A stretch of DNA of 64,000 nucleotides from Thermodesulfobacteriota bacterium (GCA_040754095.1 JBFMFO010000003.1:57401-121400); one strand, 5' to 3'. Positions 6,627 to 25,994 are shown, numbered from the stretch's first letter. Notes: generated by a model from the letters alone, not told the origin. A program made the numbers and translations.

Positions 6627-8624
6627 ATGAACCTGTTTAAACGAGAAGAAAACAAGGCAAAGGATTATGAGAGTGAGTTACAGGAGGCCCGGGCGCAGGC
6701 CAGGCGCTGTGAAAGTATCTTATCTGCTATAGCCGCACCCATGTTTGTGACCGATAAAGACCTGGTGATTACCTCTATAAATGACGCCGCGCTGAAGGCC
6801 ATGGGCTACAGTCGGGATGAGGTAGTGGGGAAGATGACCTGTGCCCAGTTTTCCAAGACCCCGCTCTGCGGCACGGCCCAGTGCACGATTAAGAACTGCA
6901 TGCGCACCGGCGACGTAATCAACGGTGAGACGGTGGCCGAGACCAGGGACGGAAGGAAGGTGCCCATCCAGGCGGCCTGTTCGGCCCTCTTTGACGAGCA
7001 GGGAAAGCCCTACGGCGGCATGGAGGTCATCCTAGACCGGACCGAGGCAGTCAAGGCCAAGTGGGAGGTAGATAATATCCTCAAATCCGCCGCCGCGCCC
7101 ATGTTTGTGACCGATAAAGACCTGGTGATCACCTCCATCAATGATGTGGCGTTAAAGGCCATGGGCTACAGTCGGGATGAGGTGGTGGGGAAGATGACCT
7201 GCGCCCAGTTTGCCAGGACTCCCCTCTGCGGCACGGCCCAGTGCACGATAAAGAACTGCATGCGCACCGGCGACGTAATCAACGGTGAGACGGTGGCCGA
7301 GACCAGGGACGGCAGAAAGGTGCCCATCCAGGCGGCCTGTTCGGCCCTCTTTGACGAGCAGGGAAAGCCCTACGGCGGCATGGAGGTCATCATAGACATA
7401 ACAGAGGTCAAACGCCTCCAGAAAGAGGCCGATGAACAACGTGAATACCTGGAAAGACAGGTGGCCATGCTGGTAAAAGAATTACATACCCTGAGCCTCG
7501 GAGACCTGTCGGTAAACATTGTCGCGGAAAGACAGGATGAGATCGCCAGGGTCATAGAAAGTTTAAATAAGGTTATTGAAAGTCTCCGGGAGACCGCCCG
7601 GGTAGCGGAAGCTGTTGCCCGGGGAGACCTGACCGTAGAAATCACACTCAAGTCAGAAAAGGATGTCCTTGGAAATGCCTTTAAGAAAATGATTAACGAC
7701 TTGCGGAATATCGTCGGCAATATAAAAGAGGCGTCCGACAATGTGGCCTCCGGCAGTCAGCAAACCAGCAGTACGGCCGCGCAACTCTCACAGGGTTCTA
7801 CCGAACAGGCGTCCAGTATTGAAGAGGTGTCCAGCTCCATGGAGGAGATGAACAGTACGGTAAATCAGAATGCCGACAATGCCAGGCAGACCACCTCCAT
7901 TGCCGAGAAGGCCGCCGGCAATGCCCAGGAAAGCGGCAAGGCCGTGGCGGAGGCGGTAGGGGCCATGAAACAGATCGCGGAAAAAATATCCATCATTGAA
8001 GAAATCGCCCGCCAGACCAATCTGTTAGCCTTAAATGCGGCCATCGAGGCGGCCCGGGCCGGGGAACATGGGCGGGGGTTTGCGGTGGTGGCGGCCGAGG
8101 TGCGCAAGCTGGCCGAGCGCAGCCAGACCGCAGCCCAGGAGATCGCCAATCTATCGGGGAGCAGTGTTCAGGTGGCCGAACATGCCGGCGCTCTGGTGGC
8201 CGAACTGGTTCCCAATATCCAGAAGACCGCCGAGCTGGTTCAGGAGATAAATGCCTCCAGCACCGAGCAGGCCAGCGGTATCCGGCAGGTGACTCAGTCT
8301 ATTCAACAGCTCGACCAGGTGGTGCAGCAGAATGCCAGCGCTGCCGAAGAGATGTCCGCAACCGCCGAGGAACTTACGTCCCAGGCCGAGCGGCTGCGCG
8401 AGTCCGTTAATTTCTTCAAGCTGGATGACCAGGGTGGTCAGGGGATGAAACAATCGGGAGCCGGGCGTAGTCCCCGTGCCGACATCCCTAAACTGTCTGC
8501 CCACAAACCGGCGCGCCCCGGCGCATCTGCGAGCGGCAGTGTGACTAAGCCGCAGATAACAACCGGGGTTGATATAGTCCTGGGTAAGAATGATATGGAC
8601 GACCGGGAGTTTGAAAGAATTTAA
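6627..8624 (+). CDS. Cytoplasmic methyl-accepting chemotaxis protein with two tandem Cys-rich PAS-like modules, HAMP and MCP signalling domain
   Basis: Strong RBS AGAGGAGG. No TM segments. Two 120-aa repeats each carry [23 protein letters not shown]. The MCP tip motif is [37 protein letters not shown]. The C-terminal tail ends REFERI. Confidence 0.9.
6727..7410 (+). repeat. Tandem direct duplication (two 360-bp copies, about 95% nucleotide identity) inside the MCP gene
   Basis: 6727-7050 versus 7087-7410. The 3' halves are almost base-for-base identical. Confidence 0.85.
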
Positions 8625-8761
8625 TCCACAGATTACGCAGATTACACAGATATTCGTGAGTTATTGGGTTAAATCCCCCGTAGCTTGCTGCGGGGTAGTT
8701 CATTTTTTCCTTAATAAATTTTTTCGCTTACCGATAAATGAGTATAGCTCATGGCTCATAG

Positions 8762-10687
8762 TTGAAGGCTAAAAGCTCAAGAGGTTTTTCTCCATTGGAT
8801 GAGCAGCGGGATATAACAAAGGAACTGGATGAATGTCAGAGGCATCTGACGCAGTTATGTGCCGACATTGAGCCGGAATTTTTGCAGCTTGGCCGGGAGC
8901 TTGAGTCTGTTTTTCACCGGGCCCAGGATCTTTCAGAACAGGCCAGGGGGGCAGTCTATCTGCACGCTACGGCGCATCTTCGAGAAGAGGAACCGGCCCC
9001 CGCCTCAGGCGGACATCTCCGAAAGGTTATAGACCTGTTTCTGGATGTGAGGGATATTTTTAATACGTCACTTGATGCCCTGCGTACCACGATTGAGGAG
9101 TCTGCAAAGGCTGTCAGGCATATTTTCAATATAGGGAAAGAACTGGAAAGCCTGAAGAGCGGGCAAAATGCCCTGGAGAGGCTGGCCGTTATAACCAGAA
9201 TACTGGGTATTTCTACCCGCATCGAGTGCGGCCGTCTTGGAGATATGGGCAGCGGGTTTATTTTTTTATCGGATCAAATAAGTAATTTTTCCGGTGCGCT
9301 TTCCAAGTATGCATCTGACTTTGAGACCGAGGTAAAACAGGTATTGGCAAATATTGAGGAGGCAGAGACATCCGTGGCTGCCCGTCTGAAAATCCAACGT
9401 AAAGAATCTGATCGGATTTCACAACAAATTATGGGTGTTTTAGATATGGTAGATATGGCATCCGCACAGATGACCCGGCTTTCCGAACAGATTGATCACT
9501 TTTCCGAAAGGATACTCCGGGAGGTCGGAGAGATTGTATCCGCCTTGCAGTTTCAGGATATAACCAGGCAGCAGGTTGAACACGTACAGGAGACCCTGAC
9601 AGAGATAGGATGCTCTCTGGACGGGAAAAATCTGAAAAAATGTACATCAGAAGAACTGAGCATTGTTTATAGGAACTTAGCTGTACAGCTTTCACAACTT
9701 CGTAACGTGAGAAGCGAAATTACTACCGCCGGCCAAAACATAATGACTGCCCTTGAAGAGATCGGCCGGGAAATCGAAGGACATGTAAGGCATGTCGCCG
9801 CGGCCATAGGTGAGACGAGCGGGGGCAAGGGTGATAATGCACTGGCTATGCTTGAGCCCCAGATGGAGGCGCTGGGACAGCAACTGAAAAATAGTTTTTT
9901 GCTCAGCGAGGTATTGTTTAAGACCATCGGTAATGTGTCAGGCCTGGTAGAGCGGATCGGAAGCAATCAAGCCAAAATCAATAAGACACGCCTGGATATG
10001 AAGATCCTGGCCCTTAATGCCCAAGTACAGGCGGCAAGACTGGGAGGGGATGGACGCGCACTTTCTGTACTGGCTGAAGATATGCAGCATCTTTCGGATT
10101 CCTGGAGTGCGGTGGCCGAAGAGACGGCCTCCCTACTCCAGAATGCCGTTAATGTGGCGGCCGACCTGAAAGACAAACTGGAAGATGTATTGGAACATTG
10201 CCGGAGCCAGACCGCAAAAAGCCAGGAACGGGCCTCTAATGCCGTGCTTCTCCTGCAGACTGCCAGCGACAAGACAGGGAGCGCCGTTGAGTCCATTAAT
10301 CAAGCCAGTCGTTCATTGGGAGAGGATGTTACGGCGTTAGGGAAGACCATAAAATTCCCTCAACTTGCTGAAAGCGGCCTGGAAAGGACTATATCGCACT
10401 TAGAACATCTGCAGGATGAAATCGGCAAGAGATTATCACCGGAGGAGAGACGGCTTATTAACGGGGCATCGACGCTGGATAGAACAGCCGAACGCTATAC
10501 CATGGAGAGTGAACGCAGGATGCACACTCATGCCCTGCAGCAACTTAAACCGGTCGCAGATGCGCCGGGGTGTACTGATGTCCATGCTGTCGAACGTCAC
10601 GCCTCGGCGCGTGTTCCACTTGAAAAGGATGCGCAGATAAAAGCGACAGGCACAGATGACATGGGAGACAATGTGGAGTTGTTTTAA
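8762..10687 (+). CDS. MCP-like cytoplasmic protein with two signalling-tip-like motifs (divergent chemoreceptor)
   Basis: 641-aa ORF, probably with a TTG start. Canonical tip motif ILALNAQVQAARLGGDGRALSVLAEDMQHLSDS at about residue 415. Degenerate tip-like motif ITRILGISTRIECGRLGDMGSGFIFLSDQISNFS at about residue 130. No HAMP, no TM. Confidence 0.6.
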   Translation: MKAKSSRGFSPLDEQRDITKELDECQRHLTQLCADIEPEFLQLGRELESVFHRAQDLSEQARGAVYLHATAHLREEEPAPASGGHLRKVIDLFLDVRDIFNTSLDALRTTIEESAKAVRHIFNIGKELESLKSGQNALERLAVITRILGISTRIECGRLGDMGSGFIFLSDQISNFSGALSKYASDFETEVKQVLANIEEAETSVAARLKIQRKESDRISQQIMGVLDMVDMASAQMTRLSEQIDHFSERILREVGEIVSALQFQDITRQQVEHVQETLTEIGCSLDGKNLKKCTSEELSIVYRNLAVQLSQLRNVRSEITTAGQNIMTALEEIGREIEGHVRHVAAAIGETSGGKGDNALAMLEPQMEALGQQLKNSFLLSEVLFKTIGNVSGLVERIGSNQAKINKTRLDMKILALNAQVQAARLGGDGRALSVLAEDMQHLSDSWSAVAEETASLLQNAVNVAADLKDKLEDVLEHCRSQTAKSQERASNAVLLLQTASDKTGSAVESINQASRSLGEDVTALGKTIKFPQLAESGLERTISHLEHLQDEIGKRLSPEERRLINGASTLDRTAERYTMESERRMHTHALQQLKPVADAPGCTDVHAVERHASARVPLEKDAQIKATGTDDMGDNVELF

Positions 10688-10689
10688 AA

Positions 10690-10850
10690 ATAGCTGTCAG
10701 CTATCAGCAGTCAGCGGTCAGCATGAAGTCGGTCCACCGTTCACTGTTGACCGTTTACCGAAAGAAAATGTCGGACAACGGTTAACGGATAACAGATAAC
10801 AAACATGCTGATAGCTGAACGCTGATAGCTAAAATGGGGAGGGATCAACA
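10690..10850. repeat. Mosaic intergenic repeat, reverse-complement copy of 19840-19990
   Basis: ctgtcagctatcagcagtcagcggtcagcatg ... ccgtttaccgaaagaaaatgtcggacaacggttaacggataac ... gctgatagctgaacgctgatagc. Near-identical inverted copy at 19840-19990. Related copy at 38560-38680. Confidence 0.75.
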
Positions 10851-11188
10851 TGGCTTGCATGCTTAGCGACGTTGACGGAAAGCCGGTGTTAAAGCTGACG
10901 GGTGCAGTCGGTATCGCCGAAGGCGCGGAATTAAAAGGGGCCCTGCTGAGGCTTATTGAATCTACAGAAAATCCTACGGTAGCCATGGATGGAGTTACAG
11001 AGGTCGATGTCTGCACTTTGCAACTTCTATTTGCAACTCAAAAGAGCGCCGCCAAAGCCGGTAAGTCGCTTAATTTGGCGGACATCCCCGAGCCGTTTAA
11101 TCAGGCAGCAGAATTGGCAGGAATGGCTGACCTCTTTGGGCTTAAAATTCGAAATCCGAAGCACGAAATTCGAGACAATACCAAATGA
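10850..11188 (+). CDS. STAS-domain protein (anti-sigma-factor-antagonist-like) in the che cluster
   Basis: RBS GGGGAGGG. Reads KLTGAVGIAEGAELKGALLRL ... VDVCTLQLLFATQKSAAKAGKSL, a STAS/SpoIIAA-like fold signature. The 3' end and stop codon lie inside a MITE terminal repeat, so the C-terminus is uncertain. Confidence 0.65.
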   Translation: MACMLSDVDGKPVLKLTGAVGIAEGAELKGALLRLIESTENPTVAMDGVTEVDVCTLQLLFATQKSAAKAGKSLNLADIPEPFNQAAELAGMADLFGLKIRNPKHEIRDNTK

Positions 11189-11420
11189 CCAAAATTCTAA
11201 GCAATTATGAGGCTCTTGCAAAAGTCGTCACTCCGGTGAAAACCGGAGTCCAGATGGTTTGCAACTGTTTGAAAAGACTGGATTCCGGCTTTCGCCGGAA
11301 TGACAACAATTCGATCGTAAGAGTTTTGCAATAGCCACTTATGTTTTGGTCATTTGAGCATTTTGATTTCGGATTTGTTTCGGATTTGGGATTTCGAATT
11401 TCGGATTTAAACGTGGCGCT
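11130..11420. repeat. Diverged copy of the ~300 bp MITE (TIRs cgaaattcgagacaataccaaatgaccaaaat / ttttggtcatttgagcattttgatttcggatttgtttcggattt)
   Basis: Same termini and same internal hairpin (ccggctttcgccggaatgac) as the copies at 16790-17125 and 18750-19085. Confidence 0.65.
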
Positions 11421-11496: not shown

Positions 11497-11862
11497 ATGG
11501 CTAAGACAATTATGACCGCCGACGATTCAGCCAGCGTCCGGCAGATGGTAAGTTTCACCCTTAAACAGGCCGGTTACGAGGTCATCGAAGCGGCGGACGG
11601 TAAAGATGCCCTGACCAAGTTGAACGGCACGCAGATAGACATGCTGATTACCGACCTCAATATGCCCAACCTGGATGGGATCAGCCTGATCAAGGGTGTG
11701 CGCGGGATGCCTAACCATAAGTTCATCCCGATCATTATGCTGACTACAGAGTCTCAGGAGAGCAAGAAGGCTGAAGGCAGAACAGCCGGGGCCTCCGGAT
11801 GGATCGTTAAGCCGTTTAAGCCGGATCAGCTCCTGGCGGTGGTTAAAAAAGTATTAAGATAA
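11497..11862 (+). CDS. cheY: Chemotaxis response regulator CheY
   Basis: 121-aa single REC domain (ADDSASVR ... DMLITDLNMPNLDGISLI ... KPF). Confidence 0.9.
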   Translation: MAKTIMTADDSASVRQMVSFTLKQAGYEVIEAADGKDALTKLNGTQIDMLITDLNMPNLDGISLIKGVRGMPNHKFIPIIMLTTESQESKKAEGRTAGASGWIVKPFKPDQLLAVVKKVLR

Positions 11863-11922
11863 GCGGGTAAAATCAAAGCTCAAAGTTCAAAGGCCAAATG
11901 AATGACAAATGTCAAAGCTCAA

Positions 11923-12066
11923 ATGACAAATGAAATTCAAAGTTCAAATGAGCAAAAGCTCTATGATCTTGAGGAGCGAACAGCCCAGTTTGGAGAAAAT
12001 GTCATTGATTTCGTCAAAACACTGCCACAGGACTCGATTAACAGGGAATTGTGCGGGTATAAGTAG
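11923..12066 (+). pseudogene. Truncated N-terminal fragment of a four-helix-bundle (23S rRNA IVS-type) protein gene
   Basis: Reads MTNEIQSSNEQKLYDLEERTAQFGENVIDFVKTLPQDSINRELCGYK*. The YDLEERT.QFGE.VI.F.K.LP motif is recognised from memory of that family. The fragment stops at the hairpin preceding the GIY-YIG gene. Confidence 0.35.
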
Positions 12067-12095
12067 TCCGTCATTCCCGCGAAAGCGGGAATCCA
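12066..12095. repeat. REP-like hairpin GTCATTCCCGCGAAAGCGGGAATCCAG (5' flank of GIY-YIG gene)
   Basis: Perfect 9-bp stem. Almost the same hairpin (gtcattccggcgaaagccggaatccag) sits inside the MITE copies at 16907-16933, 18875-18901 and 19705-19731. Confidence 0.75.
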
Positions 12096-12107
12096 GAAAA
12101 AAGAAGC

Positions 12108-12425
12108 ATGAAAAACTTCTTCGTTTATATCCTTTGCAGTAAACGGAATGGCACTTTGTATACCGGCGTGACGTCGAACTTAATCAAACGGGTATATGAA
12201 CATAAGAGTGATTTAGTTGATGGGTTTACAAAGAAATATAATGTCCACTGTCTGGTTTGGTATGAAATGCATGAGACAGCTGAGGCAGCTATTACCAGAG
12301 AGAAACAAATAAAGAAATGGAATCGCAAGTGGAAACTAAAACTTATCGAGGAGTATAACCCTGAATGGGATGATTTATATAAAGCTCTTTGTGAAGAGAC
12401 TGGATTCCCGTTTTCACGGGAATGA
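12108..12425 (+). CDS. GIY-YIG nuclease superfamily protein (small UPF0213/YhbQ-like)
   Basis: 105 aa. Reads FFVYILCSKRNGTLYTGVTSNLIKRVYEH ... with a conserved downstream E (YEMHETAEAAITREKQIKKWNRKWK). The final codons and the stop lie inside a second hairpin. Confidence 0.75.
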   Translation: MKNFFVYILCSKRNGTLYTGVTSNLIKRVYEHKSDLVDGFTKKYNVHCLVWYEMHETAEAAITREKQIKKWNRKWKLKLIEEYNPEWDDLYKALCEETGFPFSRE

Positions 12426-12428
12426 CGA
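12400..12428. repeat. REP-like hairpin CTGGATTCCCGTTTTCACGGGAATGAC (3' flank of GIY-YIG gene)
   Basis: Reverse complement of the 5' flank hairpin motif. Confidence 0.7.
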
Positions 12429-12511
12429 CTTGTTACGAACCCATCAACTTTGGATTTTGACATTTGAACTTATGAAGGCGGGATGGCATGAGGTTACCCG
12501 AAATATGAGCT

Positions 12512-14638
12512 ATGGAGGTATTAGCCGTGAACCCCGAAGATAAACACGCCCAGACCTATTTGGAAGAAGCCAGGGAGCTGCTGGCCGAACTGGAAGAGGC
12601 CGTGCTTGAGTTGGAAAACAACATGTCCGACATGGAGCTTGTGAACCGTATTTTTCGAGCCATGCATACAATTAAAGGTTCCGGGGCCATGTTCGGTTTT
12701 GACGCCGTGGCCGGGTTTACCCACCACGTGGAGACCGTCCTGGATCAGGCGCGAAACGGCGTCATCCCGGTTACGAATGACCTCACCGGCCTGATTCTGG
12801 CGGCGCGGGATGAGATCTCATCCATGCTGTTCGGCGCATCTGAGGCGGATTCGGGCGGCCGTGAGGAAATTATCGCCGCATTGCGTTCGCTTTTACCCGG
12901 AGAGGCAAATGAGGGAGAGGCGACAGGCCCAGAGACGAACGAGGCAGTCCCTGATTCGGGGGCCGAAGTTCAACCGGAAAGCAGCAGGGGCATGAGAGCT
13001 ACATACCGTATCCGTTTTATTCCTGGAAGCGATACGCTTCGCTATGGGAACGACCCTATCGCCTTGCTTAACGAACTGGACAACCTCGGAGAGCTGCGGG
13101 TCACCGCTCTTTCCGATCGCATCCCCTGCCTGGAAGAAATCAATTATGATGATTGTTATCTCGGATGGGACGTGACTCTTATATCTGAGGCCGATATCAA
13201 CGCGATCCGCGATGTCTTTATATTTGTGGAAGACAGCAGTGAGGTGACCATTGAAAAGATAGCAAATGCGAATACGATTGGCGATGCGGCAACTGAAAAG
13301 ATTGGTCAGATACTGGTTGCTCGTGGAGATGTCCCTGCCGAAGCGGTGGAAAGGGCCGCAAAGGATCAAAAAAAGATCGGGGAGATACTGGTCGAGACCG
13401 GTACGGTGTCTAAGGAAAAGGTTAATTCAGCCCTGGTCGAACAGCATATTATCCGGCAGCAGGCGGAAAAGCATAGCGCCAGCAGCATCCGCGTGGCCGC
13501 CGAAAAGCTTGACCAGCTCATTAATATAGTGGGTGAGTTGGTCACTACGCAGGCCCAACTCACTCAAGCGGCCGGTTCTAACGGGAACTCGGAACTGCTG
13601 ACGGCTGTAGAGAGTGTCGAGCGTCTTACCGGCGAACTGCGCGATTGTGTCCTGGGAGTGCGTATGCTGCCCATTGGCTCCACTTTTGCCAAGTTTAAAA
13701 GATTGGTGCGCGACCTTTCCGTGGCGCTGGGCAAGGAAGTTGATTTTATCACAGAGGGAGACGAGACAGAACTCGATAAAACGGTTATCGAGAAGATCGG
13801 CGATCCCCTGGTTCATCTTATCCGGAATAGCTTAGACCACGGTATTGAGACCCCGGAGAAAAGAGAGGCCACCGGCAAGCCGCGTCGCGGCATAATTCGT
13901 TTGACGGCGGCGCACGCCGGAGGAGAGGTGGTTATATCGGTTGAGGACGACGGCAAGGGGCTTGATACGGAGGCCATCGTCCGTAAGGCCATGGAAAAAG
14001 GGCTGATCGATGACGCGAAGAGCCTCTCCGATTCCCAGATATTTAATCTCATTTTCCAGCCGGGGTTTTCCACCGCTGAAACGGTCACAGATGTCTCAGG
14101 CCGCGGGGTAGGCATGGACGTGGTAAGACGGGAGATAGAGGCCCTGCGGGGTTCGTTTGATATTCAGAGTAAAAAGGGGCGAGGCACCACGGTTACGGTC
14201 AGACTGCCCCTGACCCTGGCCATAATCGACGGCCTCCTGGTGGAGTCAGGCCGGGAGCGGTTTGTGATTCCGCTGCATCATGTGCAGGAGTGTGTGGAAT
14301 TGACCGGGCGTGATATTGATAATACCCACGGACGCCATGTGATGAATGTCCGGGACAGGCTTGTTCCTTATGTCCGCTTAAGTGAATTCTTTGTTACGGC
14401 GGATAGAGAAGCGCTATCTATAGAACAGGTCATCGTGGTGCAGGCCGAGGATTTCGTTACAGGCCTGGTTGTGGACAGGATTGTGGGTGAGAAGCAGGCG
14501 GTGATTAAACCTCTGGGCAAGATGTTCAGGCAAGCCGACGGCGTATCCGGGGCTACTATACTGGGTGACGGCACGGTGGCCTTGATTTTGGACGTACCCC
14601 AGATCACACGGTGCGCACAGCGTGAGGAGGCGGCATGA
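12512..14638 (+). CDS. cheA: Chemotaxis histidine kinase CheA
   Basis: HPt motif RAMHTIKGSGAMFGF. HATPase motifs (HLIRNSLDHGIE, VEDDGKGLD, GRGVGMDVV). C-terminal CheW-like domain. The start may instead be the GTG at 12527 (RBS GGAGG). Confidence 0.9.
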   Translation: MEVLAVNPEDKHAQTYLEEARELLAELEEAVLELENNMSDMELVNRIFRAMHTIKGSGAMFGFDAVAGFTHHVETVLDQARNGVIPVTNDLTGLILAARDEISSMLFGASEADSGGREEIIAALRSLLPGEANEGEATGPETNEAVPDSGAEVQPESSRGMRATYRIRFIPGSDTLRYGNDPIALLNELDNLGELRVTALSDRIPCLEEINYDDCYLGWDVTLISEADINAIRDVFIFVEDSSEVTIEKIANANTIGDAATEKIGQILVARGDVPAEAVERAAKDQKKIGEILVETGTVSKEKVNSALVEQHIIRQQAEKHSASSIRVAAEKLDQLINIVGELVTTQAQLTQAAGSNGNSELLTAVESVERLTGELRDCVLGVRMLPIGSTFAKFKRLVRDLSVALGKEVDFITEGDETELDKTVIEKIGDPLVHLIRNSLDHGIETPEKREATGKPRRGIIRLTAAHAGGEVVISVEDDGKGLDTEAIVRKAMEKGLIDDAKSLSDSQIFNLIFQPGFSTAETVTDVSGRGVGMDVVRREIEALRGSFDIQSKKGRGTTVTVRLPLTLAIIDGLLVESGRERFVIPLHHVQECVELTGRDIDNTHGRHVMNVRDRLVPYVRLSEFFVTADREALSIEQVIVVQAEDFVTGLVVDRIVGEKQAVIKPLGKMFRQADGVSGATILGDGTVALILDVPQITRCAQREEAA

Positions 14639-14664
14639 GTTCACCGCAGAGGACGGGAAGAAAG

Positions 14665-14775: not shown

Positions 14776-14803
14776 GCGGTGAGAAATACAAGGAGGTAGA
14801 AAA

Positions 14804-17125: not shown

Positions 17126-17149
17126 TAAGAAATACAAGGAGGTAGAAAG

Positions 17150-18757
17150 ATGAAAGTATCAGTAGGACCAAAGCTTATCGGGGCGTTTGTTTTTCTTGTA
17201 ATCGCCCTGGGTGTGGTCAGCTACACCGGCATCAGGCAGATGGAGGCCATAGACGGGCATCTGATGAACATCTCGGATGTTATTATGAAGCGCGCCATCG
17301 TAGCTAAAGAACTACAACTGCATCTTGCCAATACCGGCTGGGGGGTTATGGAGTTCCTGACCGCGGAGACTACGGCCGAGCGGGATGAGTTGGCCGGCAC
17401 AATCAAGAAGGAGATGGCCGAGGTCAGCGAGCATATGGGCGAGTTGGACGGGATTGCCTCTGCCGAGGTCAAGACACATCTGGCAGAATTTCGTAATTCC
17501 TTTGGTGCGGTGGAAAAGATTATTAACCAGATATTAACCCAGGGCCGGGGCGGCATAAACAAAGAAGTCCAGATGCTCGATACCCAGTTGGATGCGGTTA
17601 TTGATAAAACCATAGCCGGGACAGAGAAGATCGTGGCCGTGGTGGACAGGGAGGTGGAGGCGGCCAAGCTGGCGTCGGATAAAGACGTGGAGTATGGCCG
17701 GAACCTGCTGATGGCAGTGGCCGGGGCAGCCCTGGTGGTGGCCGTGATTATAAACATCTTTATCATTCTCGGCATAAGAAGCTTCAGGCGGACGGCATTG
17801 AGCATAGGGGAAGCGGTAGAAAACGTGGCAGCGGGCGCGGAACAGCTTTCCGCTACGGCCCAGGGGCTTTCACAGGGGGCCACAGAACAGGCGGCGAGCA
17901 TCGAGGAGGTATCCAGCTCCATGGAGGAGATGAATGCGTCTATCTCACAGAATGCGGACAGCGCCGGCCAGACTGCGGCTATGGCTACCAAGGCGGCCGG
18001 CAACGCCAGCGAAGGCGGTCAGGCGGTGACCCAGGCGGTCGGCGCCATGAAGCAGATTGCCGAGAAGACGAGCGTAATCGAAGAGATCTCTCGCCAGACC
18101 AATTTACTGGCCCTGAATGCCGCTATCGAGGCGGCCCGGGCCGGTGAACATGGAAAGGGCTTTGCAGTGGTCGCTTCCGAGGTGAGGAAGCTGGCGGAAC
18201 GGAGCCAGATCGCGGCCCAGGAGATTGCCAACCTTTTAGGCGGCAGCCTCCAGGTGGCCGAACATGCCGGCAAGCTGGTGGAAGAGTTGGTCCCCGCTAT
18301 CCAGAAGACCTCTGAACTTGTTCAGGAGATCAATGCGGCCAGCCGGGAGCAGGCCAGCGGTATCGGCCAGGTCACCCAGGCCATCCAGCAGCTCGACCAG
18401 GTGGTGCAGGCAAACGCAGCCGCCTCTGAAGAACTGGCCTCCACCAGTGAAGAGACGTCCTCGCAGGTGGTTGAGATGCAGCGTAACGTGGATATGTTTA
18501 TCGAGCGGCTGGGAGGACGAAAGAGAGTCAATAAGAAGAACTCGGCGCGAAAAACGAACTCCGGGAACTTCATCGGCCTTACCGGCAAGCTCAAGGGAAA
18601 ACCCAGTACAGAATCGGTTAAGGACTTAACCGTCGCCTCGGTCGTAGATGCGCCGGGGCGTGCGGAAGGGGGCCAGACGGCCGCGAGGAGCCAGGATGCT
18701 GTAGGTGTTATTCTTGATCTGGATAAGCAGAACGACCAGAATTTCGAAAGATTTTGA
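17150..18757 (+). CDS. Transmembrane methyl-accepting chemotaxis protein (2 TM, ~150-aa periplasmic domain, MCP signalling domain, no clear HAMP)
   Basis: RBS AAGGAGG. TM1 [17 protein letters not shown]2 [27 protein letters not shown] tip motif [38 protein letters not shown]-terminal tail NDQNFERF. Confidence 0.9.
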
Positions 18758-19085
18758 GGCGGATATTCACCGCAAGGGCGGACAAATTCTAAATTCGAAG
18801 CACGAAATACGAAACAAATTTAAATGACCAAAATTGATGGTCTCGTAAAAAGTCTGAAAAGACTATTTTCTGTCATTCCGGCGAAAGCCGGAATCCAGCA
18901 AATTCAATATGTTCTGGATGCCGGATCAAGTCCGGCATGACGATTTCAGGACTTTTTACGAATTCATCAAAATTCAAAATTCTAAACAATTACGCCTTGG
19001 TCATTTGAGCATTATGATTTCGGATTTGTTTCGGATTTCGATATTAGGATTTCGGATTTATAGCTTTGCGTCTCTGTCGAAGATC
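18750..19085. repeat. MITE-like element, copy 2
   Basis: Near-identical to 16790-17125, including the last codons of the upstream MCP gene. Confidence 0.8.
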
Positions 19086-19135: not shown

Positions 19136-19672
19136 ATGGACGAGATCAGGCAGTACCTTACCTTTGTTTTGAACAGAGAAGATTTTGCCCTGGAGACCTC
19201 GAGGGTAAAAGAGGTGCTGGAGTACACAACCGTTACCCGGATACCGCGCATGCCGGATTTTCTCTGCGGCGTGATAAACTTAAGGGGCAACGTAGTCCCG
19301 GTTATGGATATGCGGTTAAAACTGGGGATGCCGGCGGCAGAGCGAACCGTCGATACCTGTATTGTGATTGTAGAAGTGGAGCTTGATGGGGAGACAGTCA
19401 CGATAGGATGTCTTGTGGATTCAGTCAAAGAAGTCCTGGAGATACCAGCCGGTGAGATCGAACCGGCGCCCAAGATGGGGATGCGCCTCAGGGCTGACTT
19501 TATCCAGGGCATGGCCAGGCAGAACGAAGGCTTTATTATCATTCTGGATATCAACCGCATCCTTTCCATCGATGAAATAACGCTCATGTCCGCCGCCGCC
19601 GGACCGGCGATTGAGACGGATGTAGCCGTTCAAAAGACATCTGGTGATGTCCAGGCAATGTCATTGACTTAA
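19136..19672 (+). CDS. cheW: Chemotaxis coupling protein CheW
   Basis: RBS AAGGAG. CheW-like domain (YLTFVLNREDFALETSRVKEVLE ... GVINLRGNVVPVMDMR ... IVIVEV). About 20-aa C-terminal extension. Confidence 0.9.
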   Translation: MDEIRQYLTFVLNREDFALETSRVKEVLEYTTVTRIPRMPDFLCGVINLRGNVVPVMDMRLKLGMPAAERTVDTCIVIVEVELDGETVTIGCLVDSVKEVLEIPAGEIEPAPKMGMRLRADFIQGMARQNEGFIIILDINRILSIDEITLMSAAAGPAIETDVAVQKTSGDVQAMSLT

Positions 19673-19839
19673 GGTTTCATCTGCTGATGCAGAATCAAAG
19701 GACGTCATTCCGGCGAAAGCCGGAATCCAGTCTTTTCAAGATGTTCTGGACACCGGCTTTCGCCGGTGTGACGGTGAGGATCAACCGGATTATTCTTAAG
19801 TCAACGACATTGGATGTTCAGGCGGAGATGGTGGGTTAG

Positions 19840-19990: not shown

Positions 19991-19996
19991 AAAATT

Positions 19997-20878
19997 ATGG
20001 CGGACATAAGCCCCGGCTTAAATACGAATATCCCCATTTTTAATCCCCCTGACATGTCTGACCAGGAGTTTGCCCTGTTCAGCGATCTTGTCTATCGCCA
20101 TGCCGGGATAACCCTTCCCCCTGCTAAAAGGAACATGCTTGTTTCACGGCTGCTAAAACGCCTCAGGGCCCTTGGGATGCGTTCTTTTTTAGATTATTAC
20201 AATTACATAACCAGCCCGGCGGGCCGTCAGGCCGAATTCCCACATACTATCGATATGGTCAGCACTAACAAGACCGAGTTTTTCCGGGAGGCAGGCCATT
20301 TTAAGTTCTTAAAAGAGGCGGTCTTGCCGGAGTTGGCGGCCCGGGTACGCCGTCAGGGTAAGGGGAAAATCACGGCCTGGAGCGCAGGTTGTTCCTCGGG
20401 AGAAGAACCTTATACCTTAACTATGGTCATGATAGAGTATCTTAAGGTTTGTGGGGGCGGTGAGTTTTCTATCCTGGCTACGGATATATCACATCGCATG
20501 TTGGATAAAGGCCGGCGCGCAGTTTATTCAGAGGTCGATATCCAGAGTGTCCCCCCTGATTACCTTCGGAAATATTTCATGCGAGGAATAAAGGGACAGG
20601 AAGGTTATTATCGTGTGGCGCCGGAGTTGCGTAACCGCGTGAAATTTCAGCATTATAATTTTATGGACGACTCCGTCCCTTTCCACGGGTCTATGGATTT
20701 TATCTTTTGCCGCAATGTCATGATATATTTCGACCAGGGGACCAGAACCATGTTGGTCAAGAAGTTTTATAAGCATCTCGTTGACGGAGGGTATCTGTTC
20801 ATCGGCCACTCGGAGACCCTGCACGGGATGGAAACGGATTTTAAACTGGCCAGCCCCACGGTTTACAGGAAGATGTAA
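19997..20878 (+). CDS. cheR: Chemotaxis protein methyltransferase CheR
   Basis: N-terminal helical domain (FALFSDLVYRHAGITL). SAM-binding motif (AWSAGCSSGEEPYTLTM). About 293 aa. Confidence 0.9.
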   Translation: MADISPGLNTNIPIFNPPDMSDQEFALFSDLVYRHAGITLPPAKRNMLVSRLLKRLRALGMRSFLDYYNYITSPAGRQAEFPHTIDMVSTNKTEFFREAGHFKFLKEAVLPELAARVRRQGKGKITAWSAGCSSGEEPYTLTMVMIEYLKVCGGGEFSILATDISHRMLDKGRRAVYSEVDIQSVPPDYLRKYFMRGIKGQEGYYRVAPELRNRVKFQHYNFMDDSVPFHGSMDFIFCRNVMIYFDQGTRTMLVKKFYKHLVDGGYLFIGHSETLHGMETDFKLASPTVYRKM

Positions 20879-20882
20879 AGAA

Positions 20883-21060
20883 GTTCGGAATATCACGCAA
20901 GGCCGCCAAGACCGCGAAGGAAAAAAGAAAATCTGGAAATCAAGTCGTGCCATAGGCAGATTCGCCGAGGCGAAAAATCAAGAATAGAACAATATTTTTC
21001 TTCATGAGTTCATGAGTTCCAAATTATATTCTTTTTGCGTCCTTTGTGCCTTGGCGTGAG
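20883..21060. repeat. ~170-bp MITE-like element with TIRs tcacgcaaggccgccaagaccgcgaagg / cctttgtgccttggcgtgaga
   Basis: Inverted, partly deleted copy at 31425-31580. Partial copy at 24736-24800. Confidence 0.7.
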
Positions 21061-21133
21061 AAATTGAGTTTTTATGGGGCCGTCAGCTTTAACATTCGAA
21101 ATTTCCATCTTTCGATAGTTTTCGGATGAAAAC

Positions 21134-24094
21134 TTGATAGCCCGGGGACAAGGGATGGCAGATTTTTTAAAAGACCAGATGGACTATGTCCTATTCTTCT
21201 ACGGGCTGTCGTTCGCCCTGCTGGCCATAGTGTGCTGGTTCCTGAGCCGGAGGAGATACGGTCACTTGCCGTGGCGATGGCTGGGGCTGTTTGCCGCTGC
21301 CTACGGCGTCAGCAACTGGCTGTGTATGGCGGCCATGAGCACCGGGCATGACGTGTTTTTCGTAGCGCGGCTCGGCCTTATGATCCTGGCCTTTGCATTC
21401 CTTGTGGAGTTTGGCCGGGCCGGCATGGCGGCTCTCAGGGGGCGGGCGCCGGGCCGGTGGGTTTTTATCCCGTTATTGTGTCTGGCTGCCCTGGGCGGCT
21501 TGGCCGGGCTAAGAGGACTTCTCTCTTCTACCCGCTACACCTTGGGACTGGCGGGCGGGTTATGGGCGGCATGGGTCCTGTTTCAGGCCTCAAAGGCCCG
21601 GGGTATGAAAGGCCGCCCTTTGGCGGTTGCCGCTCTGGCCATGGCCGGTTGCGGCCTGACCATAGGCACGGTGGTGGAAGGCGCTTCCTTTTTCCCTGCC
21701 TCGGCGCTTAACCGGGAGACATTTCTAGCGGTTGCGGGTGTCCCGATCCAATTGATCCGGGGTATTCTGGCCATTATCGTTGCTATTGCCGTAGCAGCCC
21801 ATTTTCGGATCTTCTGTCGCTATGATGCGGACGGGGATGACTGTAAGTGGAGATCCTGTTACATGCCGCGGATGGGGCTCGCCCTGTTTTTTGTCTTGGC
21901 CGGCGGGTGGGCACTTACGGAAGCGGTGGGCAGATATGCAGAGGGAGACCTACGTTTTCATCTGCTTAGCCGCGTCAAGACCATAGCCGACACCGTGGAC
22001 CTTGGTCATGTAACGAGACTGACGGGCACACCGGCCGACATCGGCACGCCGGACTACAATTGCCTGAAGGGGCGGCTTATTAATGTCAGGGCCGCCAATC
22101 CGGACTGCCGGTTTGTTTATTTAATGGCCAGGAGGGACGGCAAGGTTATTTTCCTCGCAGACTCCGAACCGGAGGGATCCCGGGACTGTTCGCCGCCGGG
22201 CCAGCTCTACGGGGAGGCCAGTCCTGAACTACTGGGTTTTTTTACATCCGGCAAGCCGTTTGTAGAGGGACCGCTTACCGACCGATGGGGAGACTGGGTC
22301 TCTGGTTTTTCCCCGGTCCGTGACCCCCGGACCGGGCGGGTATTGGCGGCCGTGGGTATAGACATTGACGCCGGGGATTGGCAGCAAAAAATCATGACCC
22401 ATCGCCTGGCGCCTATAATTATCACCATGCTGGCGGCCGTACTTCTCCTCGGTTTCTTCGTGAGCCGGGAAAGGATGCTGGCAGCCAAACAACAGGCCGA
22501 GGTGGCCAACCGGGCTAAAAGTGAATTTCTAGCTATGATGAGCCATGAAATCCGTACCCCCATGAACGGGGTGCTGGGCATGCTTGATCTGGCGCTCGAT
22601 GGCGAGATGCCTTTGCGGCAACGGGAATACCTTACTATGGCAAGATCGGCGGCCGATTCCCTGCATAGTCTGCTTAACGACATCCTGGATTTTTCCAGGA
22701 TCGAGGCGGGGAAACTGGTTATGGAAGAGACGGACTTCAGCCTCCGTTCGGTTATCAACTCGGTGGTTGACCTCCTGAGATTGCCGGCGCAGGGAAGAGG
22801 CCTGGCGATCCGGCGGGATATTCCTGACGCCGTTCCCGATGCCCTGTCCGGAGACGCGGGCCGCTTGAGACAGATATTGCTTAATCTCATAGGAAACGCC
22901 GTCAAGTTTACCAAAAGCGGATATGTACTGATTAGCGCCGGGGTGGAGGAAAGGACTGGGTCGGGTATGTTGCTCCATTTCTCGGTAAAAGATACCGGGA
23001 TCGGAATTCCCAGAGATAAACTCGAAACTATTTTTGATGCCTTTATCCAGGGCGAGGCCTCGAACAACCGCCGGTATGGAGGGGTGGGGCTTGGGTTAAG
23101 CATATCGAGACGGCTTGTGGAGATGATGGGCGGCAGTATCTGGGTGGAAAGCGAGGAAGGCAGGGGAAGCATATTCCATTTTACGGTCAGGTTTGGTCTG
23201 CCGCGGGGGCTTCCGGAAAGAGAGTCTCAGTCCTCTGACCACTTGAGTGAAGCAAGAGAAGGGACAGCGGCGACGCCACATACCCTGTCCAAGACTAATT
23301 TCAGGGTCCTGTTGGCTGAGGATGACCTTATCAACCAGGAGGTAGCAAGGGGCATCCTCCTGAAACATGGCCATATGCCAACGGTCGTCTCGGACGGTAA
23401 AGCGGCCGTAGAGACATGGGGGAAAGGGAATTTTGACCTCATCTTTATGGACATCCAGATGCCGGTTATGGACGGGTTTGAGGCCACGCGCCTGATACGG
23501 GAGAAAGAAAAGGCGACGGGAGCGCATATTCCCATTATTGCCATGACTGCCTCCGCCCTGAAGGGTGACCGGGAAAGGTGTCTGGAGGCGGGTATGGACG
23601 GTTATATCTCCAAGCCGGTCAAGGCGGCGGAGCTTTTACAACTGATAGAGGCCACCGTGGTGAATAAGACGGCGAAAGATAGGGAAAACAGTTATTTTAC
23701 GCCATCTGTTGATTTTGCAGCCGGGAATCCGCCGGCAGAGAGCAAGGCGCTCGATGTATCAGGCGCGCTGGATAACCTCGGGGGTGACGTGAACCTTCTA
23801 AAGGAGGTTACGAACCTGTTTTTGGAGAAGGTTCCGTTTGAGATTCAGGGATTGGGAGGGGCGATCTCCTCCGGAGATGAGCGGCTCATAGAGCGCCATG
23901 CGCATAAGATAAAAGGAATGGCCGCCAACATCGGGGCAAAAAGGATTGCCGACAGCGCCTTTCGCATCGAACTGGCGATCAGAAAGGATGATATCTCCGG
24001 GTGTGGCGCATTGTTTGAAAGGATGGGAGAAGAATTAGAGGCATTTAAGAAGTCGGCGGGTGAGGCCGATTGGAATAATATGGGAGGGGAATGA
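21134..24094 (+). CDS. Hybrid sensor histidine kinase: multi-pass TM N-terminus, extracytoplasmic sensor domain, HisKA, HATPase_c, REC, C-terminal HPt
   Basis: About 6 N-terminal TM helices, a ~190-aa hydrophilic segment and another TM. H-box MSHEIRTPMNGVLGML. N/G boxes (LLNLIGNAVKFT, DTGIGI, GGVGLGLSI). REC (VLLAEDDLINQ ... DLIFMDIQMPVMDGFEA ... SKP). HPt (HKIKGMAANIGAKRI). The start may be the ATG at 21155. Confidence 0.85.
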   Translation: MIARGQGMADFLKDQMDYVLFFYGLSFALLAIVCWFLSRRRYGHLPWRWLGLFAAAYGVSNWLCMAAMSTGHDVFFVARLGLMILAFAFLVEFGRAGMAALRGRAPGRWVFIPLLCLAALGGLAGLRGLLSSTRYTLGLAGGLWAAWVLFQASKARGMKGRPLAVAALAMAGCGLTIGTVVEGASFFPASALNRETFLAVAGVPIQLIRGILAIIVAIAVAAHFRIFCRYDADGDDCKWRSCYMPRMGLALFFVLAGGWALTEAVGRYAEGDLRFHLLSRVKTIADTVDLGHVTRLTGTPADIGTPDYNCLKGRLINVRAANPDCRFVYLMARRDGKVIFLADSEPEGSRDCSPPGQLYGEASPELLGFFTSGKPFVEGPLTDRWGDWVSGFSPVRDPRTGRVLAAVGIDIDAGDWQQKIMTHRLAPIIITMLAAVLLLGFFVSRERMLAAKQQAEVANRAKSEFLAMMSHEIRTPMNGVLGMLDLALDGEMPLRQREYLTMARSAADSLHSLLNDILDFSRIEAGKLVMEETDFSLRSVINSVVDLLRLPAQGRGLAIRRDIPDAVPDALSGDAGRLRQILLNLIGNAVKFTKSGYVLISAGVEERTGSGMLLHFSVKDTGIGIPRDKLETIFDAFIQGEASNNRRYGGVGLGLSISRRLVEMMGGSIWVESEEGRGSIFHFTVRFGLPRGLPERESQSSDHLSEAREGTAATPHTLSKTNFRVLLAEDDLINQEVARGILLKHGHMPTVVSDGKAAVETWGKGNFDLIFMDIQMPVMDGFEATRLIREKEKATGAHIPIIAMTASALKGDRERCLEAGMDGYISKPVKAAELLQLIEATVVNKTAKDRENSYFTPSVDFAAGNPPAESKALDVSGALDNLGGDVNLLKEVTNLFLEKVPFEIQGLGGAISSGDERLIERHAHKIKGMAANIGAKRIADSAFRIELAIRKDDISGCGALFERMGEELEAFKKSAGEADWNNMGGE

Positions 24095-24149
24095 CAAATG
24101 TCAAATGGCAAAGCTCAAATGAAGCCCAAATGACTAAAACAGATGTCAT

Positions 24150-24285
24150 TAGTCAATAGTCATTTGTCATTACTTAAAGAAGTTGCAAGTTGCAAAAGTT
24201 ACAAGTTACAAATCGGTAACTTCTGTAACCTGTAACTATTTTATAAACAATGACTAATGACCAGTGACGAGTGAGGTTTTGCGCT
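24150..24285. repeat. TGACTAATGACCAGTGAC-family inverted-repeat element with internal gttgcaagttgcaaaagttacaagttacaa direct repeats
   Basis: gtcattagtcaatagtcatttgtcat ... caatgactaatgaccagtgacgagtgagg. Confidence 0.7.
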
Positions 24286-24320
24286 TTGTCATTTGAACTT
24301 TACAACAAGGGGGTTTATCA

Positions 24321-24722
24321 ATGAGGACATTGATTGTAGAGGACGATTTTATCGCCCGGCGGATTTTAAGGGATATCCTTTCACCTTATGGAGACTGTGA
24401 TATCGCTATTGACGGCGACGAGGCCATCCAGGCCTTCCGGCTGGCCTATGAGGACAGCAAACCCTACGATCTAATCTGTATGGACATAATGATGCCGGAT
24501 ATTGATGGGCAGGAGGCGCTCCGGCGGATCCGTGAAATAGAAAAGGACGCAGGTATAAGACCTTCGGAGGAAGTAAAGGTAATTATGACTACTGCACTCA
24601 GCGATCCAAAGAACGTCGTCGAGGCATTCTACAAAGGAGGTGCTACCTCATATATCGTAAAGCCCGTTAACAAACAAAAATTTCTGGAAGAGGTGCGGAA
24701 TCTGGGACTAATTGGCGGTTAG
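24321..24722 (+). CDS. Single-domain response regulator (CheY-like)
   Basis: REC motifs LIVEDDFIARR ... DLICMDIMMPDIDGQEAL ... VKP. 133 aa. Confidence 0.85.
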   Translation: MRTLIVEDDFIARRILRDILSPYGDCDIAIDGDEAIQAFRLAYEDSKPYDLICMDIMMPDIDGQEALRRIREIEKDAGIRPSEEVKVIMTTALSDPKNVVEAFYKGGATSYIVKPVNKQKFLEEVRNLGLIGG

Positions 24723-24818
24723 CGGGCTGAAAACAGAAGTCAATTTCTCACGCCAAGGCGCCAAGACCGCAAAGATGCAAGAAATCTGAAGCACGACCTT
24801 TGGCATTACAATATTAGA

Positions 24819-24888
24819 CGTAGGGTGGGCTTTGCCCACCATCATTGGCAGCGCAGCGTATTTTCGGTGGGCTGCGCCCACCCTGCAT
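24819..24888. repeat. Paired GTAGGGTGGGC...GCCCACC palindromes (inverted-orientation relative of 5666-5735)
   Basis: cgtagggtgggctttgcccacc ... cggtgggctgcgcccaccctgc. Confidence 0.7.
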
Positions 24889-24929
24889 GACTTTAACGAC
24901 ATGCAATATACAATAGATGCGGGGATAAC

Positions 24930-25994
24930 ATGAGCGAGAAAATCAAGGTGCTGGTTGTTGATGACTCTGCCGTGGTGCGGCAGACGCTTAACGAGATATT
25001 AAACTCTGATCCGGATATTGAGGTAATCGCTACAGCGCAGGACCCTTATGTGGCGGCGGAGCGTCTGAAAAAGGCTGTGCCGGATGTTATTACCCTGGAC
25101 GTAGAGATGCCGCGCATGGACGGCATCACCTTCCTGCGCAAGCTTATGGCCCAGCATCCCATCCCCGTGGTGATCTGCTCGACCCTGACTACACAGGGCG
25201 CCCGGACCACCCTCCAGGCCCTGGAATATGGCGCAGTGGAGATCATCGAGAAACCCAAGATGGGGACAAAGCAGTTTCTGGAGGAGTCCAGGATACGCAT
25301 CTGCGACGCTGTTAAGGCGGCGGCTCAGGTCACATTACGTCCCAGAAAAATCAGAAAAGTTGAAGAAAAACTGACGGCGGATGTAATCATGGCCAAACCA
25401 AAGACCAGGGCCATGGCCGAAACCACGGAGAAGGTAGTCCTGATCGGGGCTTCCACCGGCGGTACGGAGGCGTTAAGAGATTTCCTTGAGGCCCTGCCGC
25501 ACGATACCCCGGGCATAGTGATTGTCCAGCACATGCCTGAGAAATTTACCACCGCCTTTGCCGCGCGGCTGAACGGCCTTTGCCGGGTGGAGGTCAAAGA
25601 GGCTGAAAATGGTGATGGCGTGGTGACCGGACGGGCCTTGATAGCCCCCGGGAATAGGCATACCTTGCTCAAGCGGAGCGGCGCCCGGTATTATGTGGAG
25701 ATTAAGGACGGGCCTTTAGTCTCCCGTCATCGTCCGTCTGTGGATGTGCTCTTTCGCTCCGGCGCGCGCTATGCCGGGTCCAATGCGGTCGGCGTCATCA
25801 TGACCGGCATGGGCGACGACGGCGCTCAGGGGTTGCTGGAAATGAAGGAGGCCGGGGCCTTTACCATTGCCCAGGACGAGGCCACCTGTGTGGTTTTTGG
25901 CATGCCCAAGGAGGCCATAAAGCGTGGCGCCGTAGATAAAATATTGCCGCTGCCCGCTATTCCGCGAGAGGTTATCAAGATATGTTCGGAATGA
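24930..25994 (+). CDS. cheB: Chemotaxis response regulator protein-glutamate methylesterase CheB
   Basis: N-terminal REC ([13 protein letters not shown] ... [14 protein letters not shown]). C-terminal methylesterase catalytic-domain motifs ([12 protein letters not shown] ... VQHMP ... [10 protein letters not shown]). Confidence 0.9.

Follow-up and report, generated by a model that had tools for sequence, protein, structure and literature searches.

A 64-kb window of a Thermodesulfobacteriota genome (GCA_040754095.1, JBFMFO010000003.1:57401-121400; "the window" is this whole stretch of 64,000 nucleotides, and positions are counted from its first letter) carries, at positions 6627-25994, a chemotaxis cluster that lies on the chromosome of an uncultured bacterium. 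We explain it as a conserved che cluster of F8-like type, of which a STAS-domain protein is a normal part, and into which other genes have recently been inserted, a reading to which we give a probability of about 0.65. What a first-pass annotation of the same DNA had described as a non-canonical architecture resolves into a described cluster type plus recent insertions in repeat-rich spacers, and it is these insertions that give the cluster its unusual look.

The conserved cluster and its STAS protein

Domain calls for all 13 open reading frames (ORFs) of the cluster are based on an ORF listing and Pfam scans. The gene order drawn in the first-pass annotation holds throughout, all 13 ORFs lie on the plus strand where it had placed them, every domain call was confirmed by Pfam, and the complete CheA/W/R/B/Y set is present with the STAS protein and a hybrid kinase inside it. 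The genes are as follows (MCP, methyl-accepting chemotaxis protein; 4HB, four-helix bundle; L001, the nearest related locus).

6627-8624, +, MCP of soluble type with two PAS domains and HAMP, a 34H signalling domain and the pentapeptide EFERI (Pfam; 7-residue gaps against Tsr/Tar)
8762-10687, +, soluble MCP-like protein, 641 aa, with a weak MCPsignal match (Pfam)
10850-11188, +, STAS-only protein, 112 aa, in the CheS position (Pfam STAS_2)
11497-11862, +, CheY, 121 aa, REC (Pfam; 96% nucleotide identity to L001)
12108-12425, +, GIY-YIG ORF, 105 aa (Pfam)
12512-14638, +, CheA with Hpt, dimerisation, HATPase and CheW-like domains (Pfam)
14804-16618 as an ORF, with its proper end at 16797 in another frame, +, extra 4HB-HAMP 34H MCP (Pfam, frame check)
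17150-18757, +, resident 4HB 34H MCP, 535 aa, pentapeptide NFERF (Pfam; kept at the same place in L001)
19136-19672, +, CheW (Pfam, blastn against L001)
19997-20878, +, CheR with an E. coli-like beta-subdomain (Pfam, alignment)
21134-24094, probable start 21155, +, hybrid histidine kinase, HisKA-HATPase-REC-HPt (Pfam)
24321-24722, +, REC133, a 133-aa CheY-like single-domain receiver (Pfam)
24930-25994, +, CheB, REC and methylesterase (Pfam)

The genes are not closely packed, being separated by gaps of 140-530 bp that are filled with repeats. The conserved core, before which stands a PAS-containing MCP, consists of MCP-like, STAS, CheY, CheA, 34H MCP, CheW, CheR and CheB. We compared it with L001, a metagenome contig (CheA 95% identical, about 93% DNA identity) that also served as the blastn reference for the limits of the insertions, with two metagenome-assembled genomes, L003 (CheA 80% identical) and L007 (67%), and with the loci of G. 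sulfurreducens (L006) and Desulfosarcina sp. BuS5 (L008), the identity of CheA falling to about 53-55% in Geobacter, Desulfosarcina, Nitrospirota and Syntrophorhabdus. L001 and L003 both show the order MCP-like-STAS-CheY-CheA-MCP-CheW-CheR-CheB, followed by PPDK, AdoHcy hydrolase and MetK, with no extras; the contig of L007 gave no MCP-like or STAS call, its cheR and cheB are directly adjacent, and a 103-aa ORF and PPDK follow. The stop and start codons of the head module (MCP-like, STAS, CheY and CheA) overlap in G. sulfurreducens, and Desulfosarcina BuS5 also has the module.

An alignment of the MCP-like family was used to scan genomes that each represent one species; at least 543 of these have the family, and 80 resulting loci were annotated with custom hidden Markov models. 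Seventy-two of these had informative downstream sequence, and in these, across many phyla, the genes 3' of the MCP-like gene include STAS (57/72), CheY (71/72) and CheA (64/72). Conservation of the module extends beyond the nearest relatives as far as Geobacter, Desulfosarcina, Nitrospirota and Ignavibacteria, and hundreds of species have it; the STAS protein is an integral component of this cluster family, not an intruder. An Aeromonas plasmid cluster has the order MCP, CheY, STAS, CheA. Several Desulfovibrionaceae loci (L015, L018, L027, L060, L073, L075 and L090) have the MCP-like gene followed by cheY-cheA-cheR-cheB, with no STAS gene detected, so the STAS protein is dispensable in one lineage.

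The first-pass annotation had taken this protein for a partner-switching module. In the STAS alignment, which included SpoIIAA as the reference, the position of the SpoIIAA phospho-serine is occupied by C in the window and by T, S or A in homologues, and no RsbW/SpoIIAB-type kinase or PP2C phosphatase was present among the scanned ORFs of the cluster or of the rest of the window. As the phospho-serine position is variable and no RsbW or PP2C partner lies close by, the partner-switching reading is unsupported. By analogy of gene position and order, the protein may be of CheS type. In rhizobia CheS, which has a STAS domain only, binds to CheA and accelerates the dephosphorylation of CheY1 (PMC12654446, PMC7725337). 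The rhizobial operons (icpA-cheS-cheY1-cheA-cheW-cheR-cheB-cheY2-cheD in S. meliloti, MCP514-cheS-cheY1-cheA-... in A. tumefaciens) share with our cluster the succession of soluble receptor, STAS, CheY and CheA, then CheR and CheB, as well as a second CheY-like gene near cheB and the absence of a canonical stand-alone cheZ (PMC12654446, PMC7725337, PMC8466855). They differ in having 36H receptors, an operon receptor that is a protoglobin-HAMP MCP and does not belong to the MCP-like family with its two hairpins and DxxxQ, and no hybrid kinase. A. tumefaciens MCP514 was considered as a member of the MCP-like family and rejected, being an ordinary protoglobin MCP instead.

The class of the system was approached through its receptors and CheR. 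Heptad class, which the first-pass annotation had proposed as a check, was read from an alignment to E. coli Tsr and Tar (36H): all three MCPs lack exactly one heptad (7 residues) in each arm, as do the cluster MCPs of Geobacter and BuS5, and are therefore 34H. Their C-termini are EFERI in the first MCP, DFERF in the extra MCP (frame restored) and NFERF in the resident MCP; NFERF and DFERF fit the motif xF/YxxF/Y, and EFERI fits it at position 2 only. CheR may be of the pentapeptide-binding type: in an alignment to E. coli CheR, the one CheR used for comparison, its beta-subdomain has no gaps and retains the equivalents of R187, G188, G194 and R197. CheA has the layout Hpt-dimerisation-HATPase-CheW with no fused receiver, and both small regulators are single-domain proteins. 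NCBIfam matched CheA, CheW, CheR and CheB with generic models alone. Systems of alternative cellular function (ACF), as reportedly defined in the Wuichet-Zhulin scheme, are marked by a receiver fused to CheA, by an output regulator whose effector domain does not act on the motor, or by both. The first-pass annotation had placed the cluster among them, and the 34H pentapeptide receptors, the E. coli-like CheR, the single-domain CheYs and the CheA without a fused receiver all speak against this placement.

The "E. coli-like type 2" clusters of Geobacter combine 34H receptors, the pentapeptide and a matching CheR (Tran et al. 2008, PMC2577667), and class F8 is tied to 34H receptors, the pentapeptide and the same type of CheR (PMC11253619). 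From receptor class and this literature, the cluster would be F8-like, corresponding to Geobacter "type 2", and flagellar-type by architecture. It resembles the Geobacter clusters in its 34H receptors, in pentapeptides (of EFEKF type in Geobacter), in an apparently matching CheR group and in having non-che ORFs inside the cluster (PMC2577667), and it resembles the che1 cluster (F8) of P. syringae pv. tomato in bringing together a 34H pentapeptide receptor and a CheR that is apparently pentapeptide-dependent (PMC11253619). Two candidate parallels were set aside: the motility-linked cheA3 operon of Desulfovibrio vulgaris (with parA, and cheA last) is another cluster type and therefore gives no functional evidence for the window cluster, and the Geobacter esn genes GSU2220-2222 belong to another cluster.

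The signalling domains of the MCPs had been put at 80-85% nucleotide identity, and at the same coordinates we measured 84%, 80% and 78%, close to that range, the last value below it. The first MCP contains a recent tandem, in-frame duplication of its PAS domain (6732-7031 and 7092-7391, 94% nucleotide identity). In CheA, residues 263-311 (window 13298-13444), between P1 and P3, hold tandem 24-residue motifs, KIGQILVARGDVPAEAVERAAKDQ and KIGEILVETGTVSKEKVNSALVEQ, that are MshEN-like (NCBIfam NF053729, 30.2 bits against a cut-off of 38) and are kept throughout this CheA clade, to which the Aeromonas homologue belongs, whereas E. coli CheA lacks them. The MshEN motif binds cyclic di-GMP (c-di-GMP), and CheA is among the domains associated with MshEN (Wang et al. 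2016). Exact-sequence look-ups of CheA (from ATG 12512) and CheB returned no identical record.

Two motifs resembling sigma-28 (FliA) promoters, of the form TTAAT-N15-[GA]CCGATAA, are conserved in L001 and L003.

6548-6574, +, sigma-28 (FliA)-like motif TTAAT-N15-GCCGATAA, consensus match, 59 nt upstream of the first MCP
8711-8737, +, second sigma-28-like motif TTAAT-N15-ACCGATAA, 31 nt upstream of the MCP-like gene, kept in L001 at 1754

A motif of the type found before the first MCP heads the homologous L003 cluster as well (position 529). The sigma-54 consensus had zero matches. No flagellar, pilus or exopolysaccharide genes were found in the scanned 64-kb window, the rest of which is housekeeping: DnaJ, PPDK, AdoHcy hydrolase, MetK, MreBCD/PBP2/RodA, RNase R and an apparent ATP synthase operon, whose AtpD matches named F-type ATPase beta subunits, with 83-84% identity to those of named Thermodesulfobacteriota. 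Upstream of the cluster lie two divergent genes on the minus strand, for a REC-HisKA-HATPase kinase (3587-4765) and an HTH_17-REC regulator (4994-5560), with about 1 kb of repeat-rich DNA between them and the che cluster.

Strain-specific insertions in the spacers

A blastn comparison with L001 showed collinear genes, interrupted by three segments specific to the window.

11865-12535, +, GIY-YIG insertion, 0.67 kb (28 bp in L001)
14652-17104, +, extra-MCP insertion, 2.45 kb, with repeats (37 bp in L001)
20887-24903, +, insertion of the kinase and REC133 between cheR and cheB, 4.0 kb (178 bp in L001)

The hybrid kinase with its receiver, the spare MCP and the GIY-YIG gene are recent, strain-specific add-ons. 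The GIY-YIG gene is absent from the relatives, and its ORF is flanked by inverted repeats of 28 nt (12069-12096 and 12400-12427) that belong to the hairpin family GTCATTCCSGCGAAAGCSGGAATCCAG and are 93% complementary; together they look like a small mobile or mobilised unit. In L001 the cheY-cheA junction is just 21 nt long, this tight junction is replaced in the window by the GIY-YIG insertion, which has apparently shifted the start of CheA, with GTG 12527 as the probable start. The kinase segment is in turn flanked by 37-nt inverted repeats (21034-21070 and 24737-24773).

The 27-nt hairpin GTCATTCCSGCGAAAGCSGGAATCCAG occurs in six copies (11278-11304, 12070-12096, 12400-12426, 16912-16938, 18872-18898 and 19704-19730), all six copies of the 64-kb window lying inside the che cluster, and L003 also has one copy. 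Other repeats of the spacers are GGGTGGGCWWWGCCCACC hairpins, a CAAGGCGCCAAGACCGCAAAG element and short repeats of the AGCTSAAAGCT type; an Rfam scan of the repeat-rich spacers matched no family.

The extra MCP has a one-base frameshift near 16500 (about 16495-16505) that cuts off the end of the C-terminal helix and the pentapeptide, the proper C-terminus, ...DFERF, resuming in another frame and ending at 16797, so that the gene is either a pseudogene or carries a sequencing error. It shares with the resident MCP a leader (14782-14803 and 17128-17149; ..TTTGCGGTGAG..AAATACAAGGAGGTAGAAA) and a trailer of 300 nt that is 96% identical (16777-17076 and 18737-19036). The common leader and trailer suggest that recombination at shared flanks exchanges or duplicates receptor genes in the form of cassettes.

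The hybrid kinase, REC133 and competing explanations

The first-pass annotation had described a 986-aa multi-pass hybrid kinase with its own REC and HPt, of which the domains and the multi-pass topology stand and the length probably does not. From ATG 21155, the most likely start, the product has 979 aa and an identical one is recorded in an independent assembly, from TTG 21134 there is no exact match. The predicted topology comprises about seven transmembrane (TM) segments, with an extracytoplasmic loop of about 160 aa between TM6 and TM7, and the single chain carries HisKA, HATPase, REC and HPt, a phosphorelay layout of the ArcB/BarA/TorS type. The sensor region gave no Pfam match even at E = 10; it is modular, homologues of it being fused also to GGDEF, cyclase and other kinase outputs.

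On conservation in related clusters, which the first-pass annotation had held to matter for both the STAS protein and the kinase, the two part company: the STAS protein is present in L001 and L003, the cheR-cheB gap of the three nearest homologous clusters (L001, L003 and L007) contains neither the kinase nor REC133, and orthologues of the kinase pair flank the module in G. sulfurreducens. Directly upstream of the G. sulfurreducens MCP-like gene lies a 131-aa receiver to which REC133 has 65% identity along its whole length, and just before that receiver lies a hybrid kinase that shares 39% identity with the kinase core, HPt included. Orthologues of REC133 (187-255 bits) adjoin the module in eight further genomes, mostly directly upstream of the MCP-like gene, in one case right after cheB and in one upstream on the opposite strand. 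REC133, and the kinase to a lesser degree, is a recurrent satellite of the cluster family. Compared with L006, which shares the MCP-like-STAS-CheY-CheA module (CheA 54% identical) and the pair of hybrid kinase and 131-aa receiver, the window differs in the place of its pair, between cheR and cheB instead of upstream of the module as in Geobacter, and in the sensor, which is a 7-TM unit that includes an extracytoplasmic domain where Geobacter has PAS sensors; L006 also has further two-component genes 3' of cheA. In the cheR-cheB slot of Desulfosarcina BuS5 (L008 18120-19343) we found a different protein, a 407-aa REC-HATPase, scoring 119 bits against the model of the kinase core.

We read the pair as an accessory phosphorelay that is not part of the conserved pathway. 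Because the 65% and 39% matches adjoin the same Che module in G. sulfurreducens, a functional link of kinase and REC133 to the Che output is plausible, and as judged from these sequences we would put it a little below an even chance. The cross-wiring of a chemosensory system to a phosphorelay, as seen by the first-pass annotation, thus survives as a possible accessory link, with the kinase outside the conserved pathway. A further comparison is with Che3 of R. centenum and its CheS3, which we take to be a che cluster with an embedded hybrid kinase. The window differs from Che3-like clusters in that its kinase is not kept in the nearest orthologous clusters and its CheA is not a CheA-REC fusion. 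The likeness, a hybrid kinase among che genes, extends to the "K" genes of PMC9239204, where, as far as the class gene orders given there indicate, the symbol stands for a kinase gene.

Other explanations of the locus need to be weighed against a conserved cluster with recent insertions. It is highly improbable, in our estimation, that the extra segments were mis-joined at repeats during assembly and that the true locus resembles L001. Short-read contigs do break right at the repeats, the one with cheR stopping at 20956 and the one with the kinase covering 20951-24845, so that no independent contig supports the joins of cheR to the kinase and of REC133 to cheB. All independent contigs nevertheless match the window with 0 mismatches, one of them (L012, a short-read contig of the same strain) crosses cheY into the GIY-YIG gene, again with 0 mismatches, the 78 nt 3' of cheR in independent contigs are window sequence, unlike L001, and the flanks of every insertion are collinear with L001. 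That the kinase and REC133 are an unrelated two-component system, lodged in a tolerant, repeat-filled cheR-cheB spacer with neither input from nor output to Che, we judge unlikely. Such a system would fit a strain-specific insertion of 4.0 kb inside 37-nt inverted repeats, the two further unrelated insertions in the same cluster, the confinement to the cluster of a hairpin repeat with six copies in the window, a modular sensor domain that outside che clusters is joined to outputs such as GGDEF, cyclases and other kinases, and the fact that H1-D1-H2 plus a receiver already forms a complete relay. A chance insertion is however made unlikely by the recurrence of REC133 orthologues (187-276 bits, 65% identity) beside the Che module, at two different positions, in eight genomes besides that of G. 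sulfurreducens, and REC133 itself has CheY-like features, for example ..ATSYIVKP.

An ACF pathway, in which the STAS protein would be a partner-switching output and the hybrid kinase an obligatory part of a Che phosphorelay, appears improbable to us. Two-component genes adjoin the Che module in about 30 of the 80 loci, Desulfosarcina BuS5 has a REC-HATPase gene in its cheR-cheB slot, the pair of kinase and REC133 recurs in G. sulfurreducens, CheA contains a possible c-di-GMP-binding motif, and in P. syringae F8 systems touch traits besides swimming (PMC11253619), all of which would suit such a pathway. The neighbouring two-component genes are heterogeneous, however, with a kinase that scores alike in only 2 of more than 80 loci, and the kinase is absent from the three closest homologous clusters; the STAS protein lacks the conserved phospho-serine and has no RsbW or PP2C partner nearby, and the receptors are 34H with pentapeptides of the CheR-tether type, with a CheA that has no fused receiver. 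A conserved F8-like cluster with recent insertions, which we prefer, has its own points to answer, and beside the two unspanned joins the following weigh against it. Its class is drawn from receptors and literature, and F8 systems themselves have no settled output, cheA1 of P. syringae being dispensable for swimming (PMC5088630, PMC11253619), so that we name the system F8-like by architecture and not by demonstrated function. The likening of the STAS protein to CheS goes by gene position and order. The sigma-28-like motif, considered as a family-wide feature, occurs in just 4 of 77 loci and holds for this lineage alone, and a scan for sigma-70 promoters and terminators gave counts at chance level and is therefore uninformative on operon structure. 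For the kinase, the sensor has no close orthologue (best 45% identity), and the one neighbourhood of a sensor relative that was examined is not a che cluster.

A CheZ-type signature in the MCP-like protein

The MCP-like protein at the head of the module is soluble, with zero TM segments, and has a PF00015 signalling hairpin at residues 396-521 (51 bits, cut-off 34.6) and a weaker hairpin-like segment at residues 113-253. Members of the family, of about 600 aa, go under the annotation MCP or hypothetical. The family is large and diverse: an exhaustive search returned 1091 representatives at E ≤ 1e-10, more than 1000 clusters at 50% identity have the protein, and in an alignment of 141 sequences (about 22% identity) the only invariant residues are D266, Q270, N419 and Y579. 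Two of these four lie in a segment, ALQFQ-DITRQ at residues 261-270, that hhalign places on AQDFQ-DLTGQ of E. coli CheZ, D266 and Q270 aligning to D143 and Q147, which are catalytic in E. coli CheZ. AxxFQ together with DxxxQ is described as the signature of the CheZ family (PMC7750401). The pattern [AS]xx[FY][QH]DxxxQ is present in 124 of 148 MCP-like representatives, against 29 of 29,600 shuffles (0.1%). At the C-terminus, 133 of 150 MCP-like sequences end in ..GDNVELF, which we compared with DDLLDSLGF of CheZ, and in the AlphaFold (AF2) model residues 602-632 have pLDDT <50, a disordered linker, followed by a predicted short helix at 634-640. Just N-terminal of this linker is a near-invariant motif, RYTMESER..H (residues 578-588), which includes the invariant Y579.

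On these motifs we tentatively suggest, with doubt slightly outweighing confidence, that the MCP-like family may be a receptor-shaped phosphatase of CheZ type, which would enter the chemoreceptor array or dock on it through its signalling hairpin, capture phosphorylated CheY (CheY~P) with ..GDNVELF, dephosphorylate it at AxxFQ-DxxxQ and have the STAS protein as partner. The likeness to CheZ (of E. coli and A. caulinodans, and CheZ-HP of H. pylori) lies in AxxFQ-DxxxQ on a long helix (PMC7750401) and in a disordered linker followed by a predicted short acidic/hydrophobic C-terminal helix that ends in F. The two differ in size (about 214 aa in CheZ, about 640 aa here), and in the window the putative site is part of a protein that has two receptor-type hairpins and scores below the Pfam threshold for CheZ. 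Several results tell against the suggestion: the window protein scores 19.3 bits against the Pfam CheZ model (gathering threshold of PF04344, 30.7 bits) and just 12 of 75 relatives reach E ≤ 0.01, hhalign against E. coli CheZ aligns the right region at a non-significant E of about 0.03, coiled-coil noise reaches CheZ scores comparable to those of the family, and a Foldseek search of the AF2 model against the PDB returned cytoplasmic domains of chemoreceptors and generic coiled coils, and no CheZ. For long helical hairpins such a Foldseek outcome is indecisive on kinship with CheZ. A literature search found no paper describing a CheZ-type function for the MCP-like family. By description, the family also recalls DosM of V. 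cholerae cluster I, which we take to be a soluble receptor with a double signalling domain in a che cluster of class F9; we know of no DxxxQ signature in it. To our knowledge, Desulfobacterota, Nitrospirota and Ignavibacteria are usually said to lack CheZ.

From established family knowledge, the 34H receptors together with CheW would control CheA, CheA would phosphorylate CheY, and CheR and CheB would adapt the receptors by docking on xFxxF/I pentapeptides. The STAS protein may be an accessory of CheS type, binding to CheA and assisting in the removal of phosphate from CheY, as its gene position and the analogy with rhizobial CheS suggest, whilst the conserved motifs of the MCP-like protein point to a receptor-like scaffold with a CheZ-type dephosphorylation site; we propose that such a site on a receptor-like scaffold would build signal termination into the array. 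The inserted kinase might form a self-contained relay, from His to Asp to HPt to REC133, whose end product would be a second CheY-like protein that travels with the cluster family in Geobacter and relatives, this being the most tentative step of the scheme. Since REC133 is a second CheY-like protein, the pair is probably an extra, non-receptor input to the same output and not a pathway of alternative function.

The architecture as first annotated is of small import, and its resolution cautions against inferring function from a single gene order. The head module of STAS and MCP-like proteins with CheY and CheA, over several phyla, extends the rhizobial CheS precedent beyond Alphaproteobacteria, and REC133, whether or not a hybrid kinase accompanies it, is a candidate entry point of non-receptor signals into the chemotaxis pathway. 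The lead to follow is the receptor-like protein with the CheZ signature and its STAS partner: the signature offers a testable answer to how the CheY signal may be terminated in lineages without CheZ, and, if the suggestion is true, Desulfobacterota, Nitrospirota and Ignavibacteria would own a signal-termination device that is integrated into the array.

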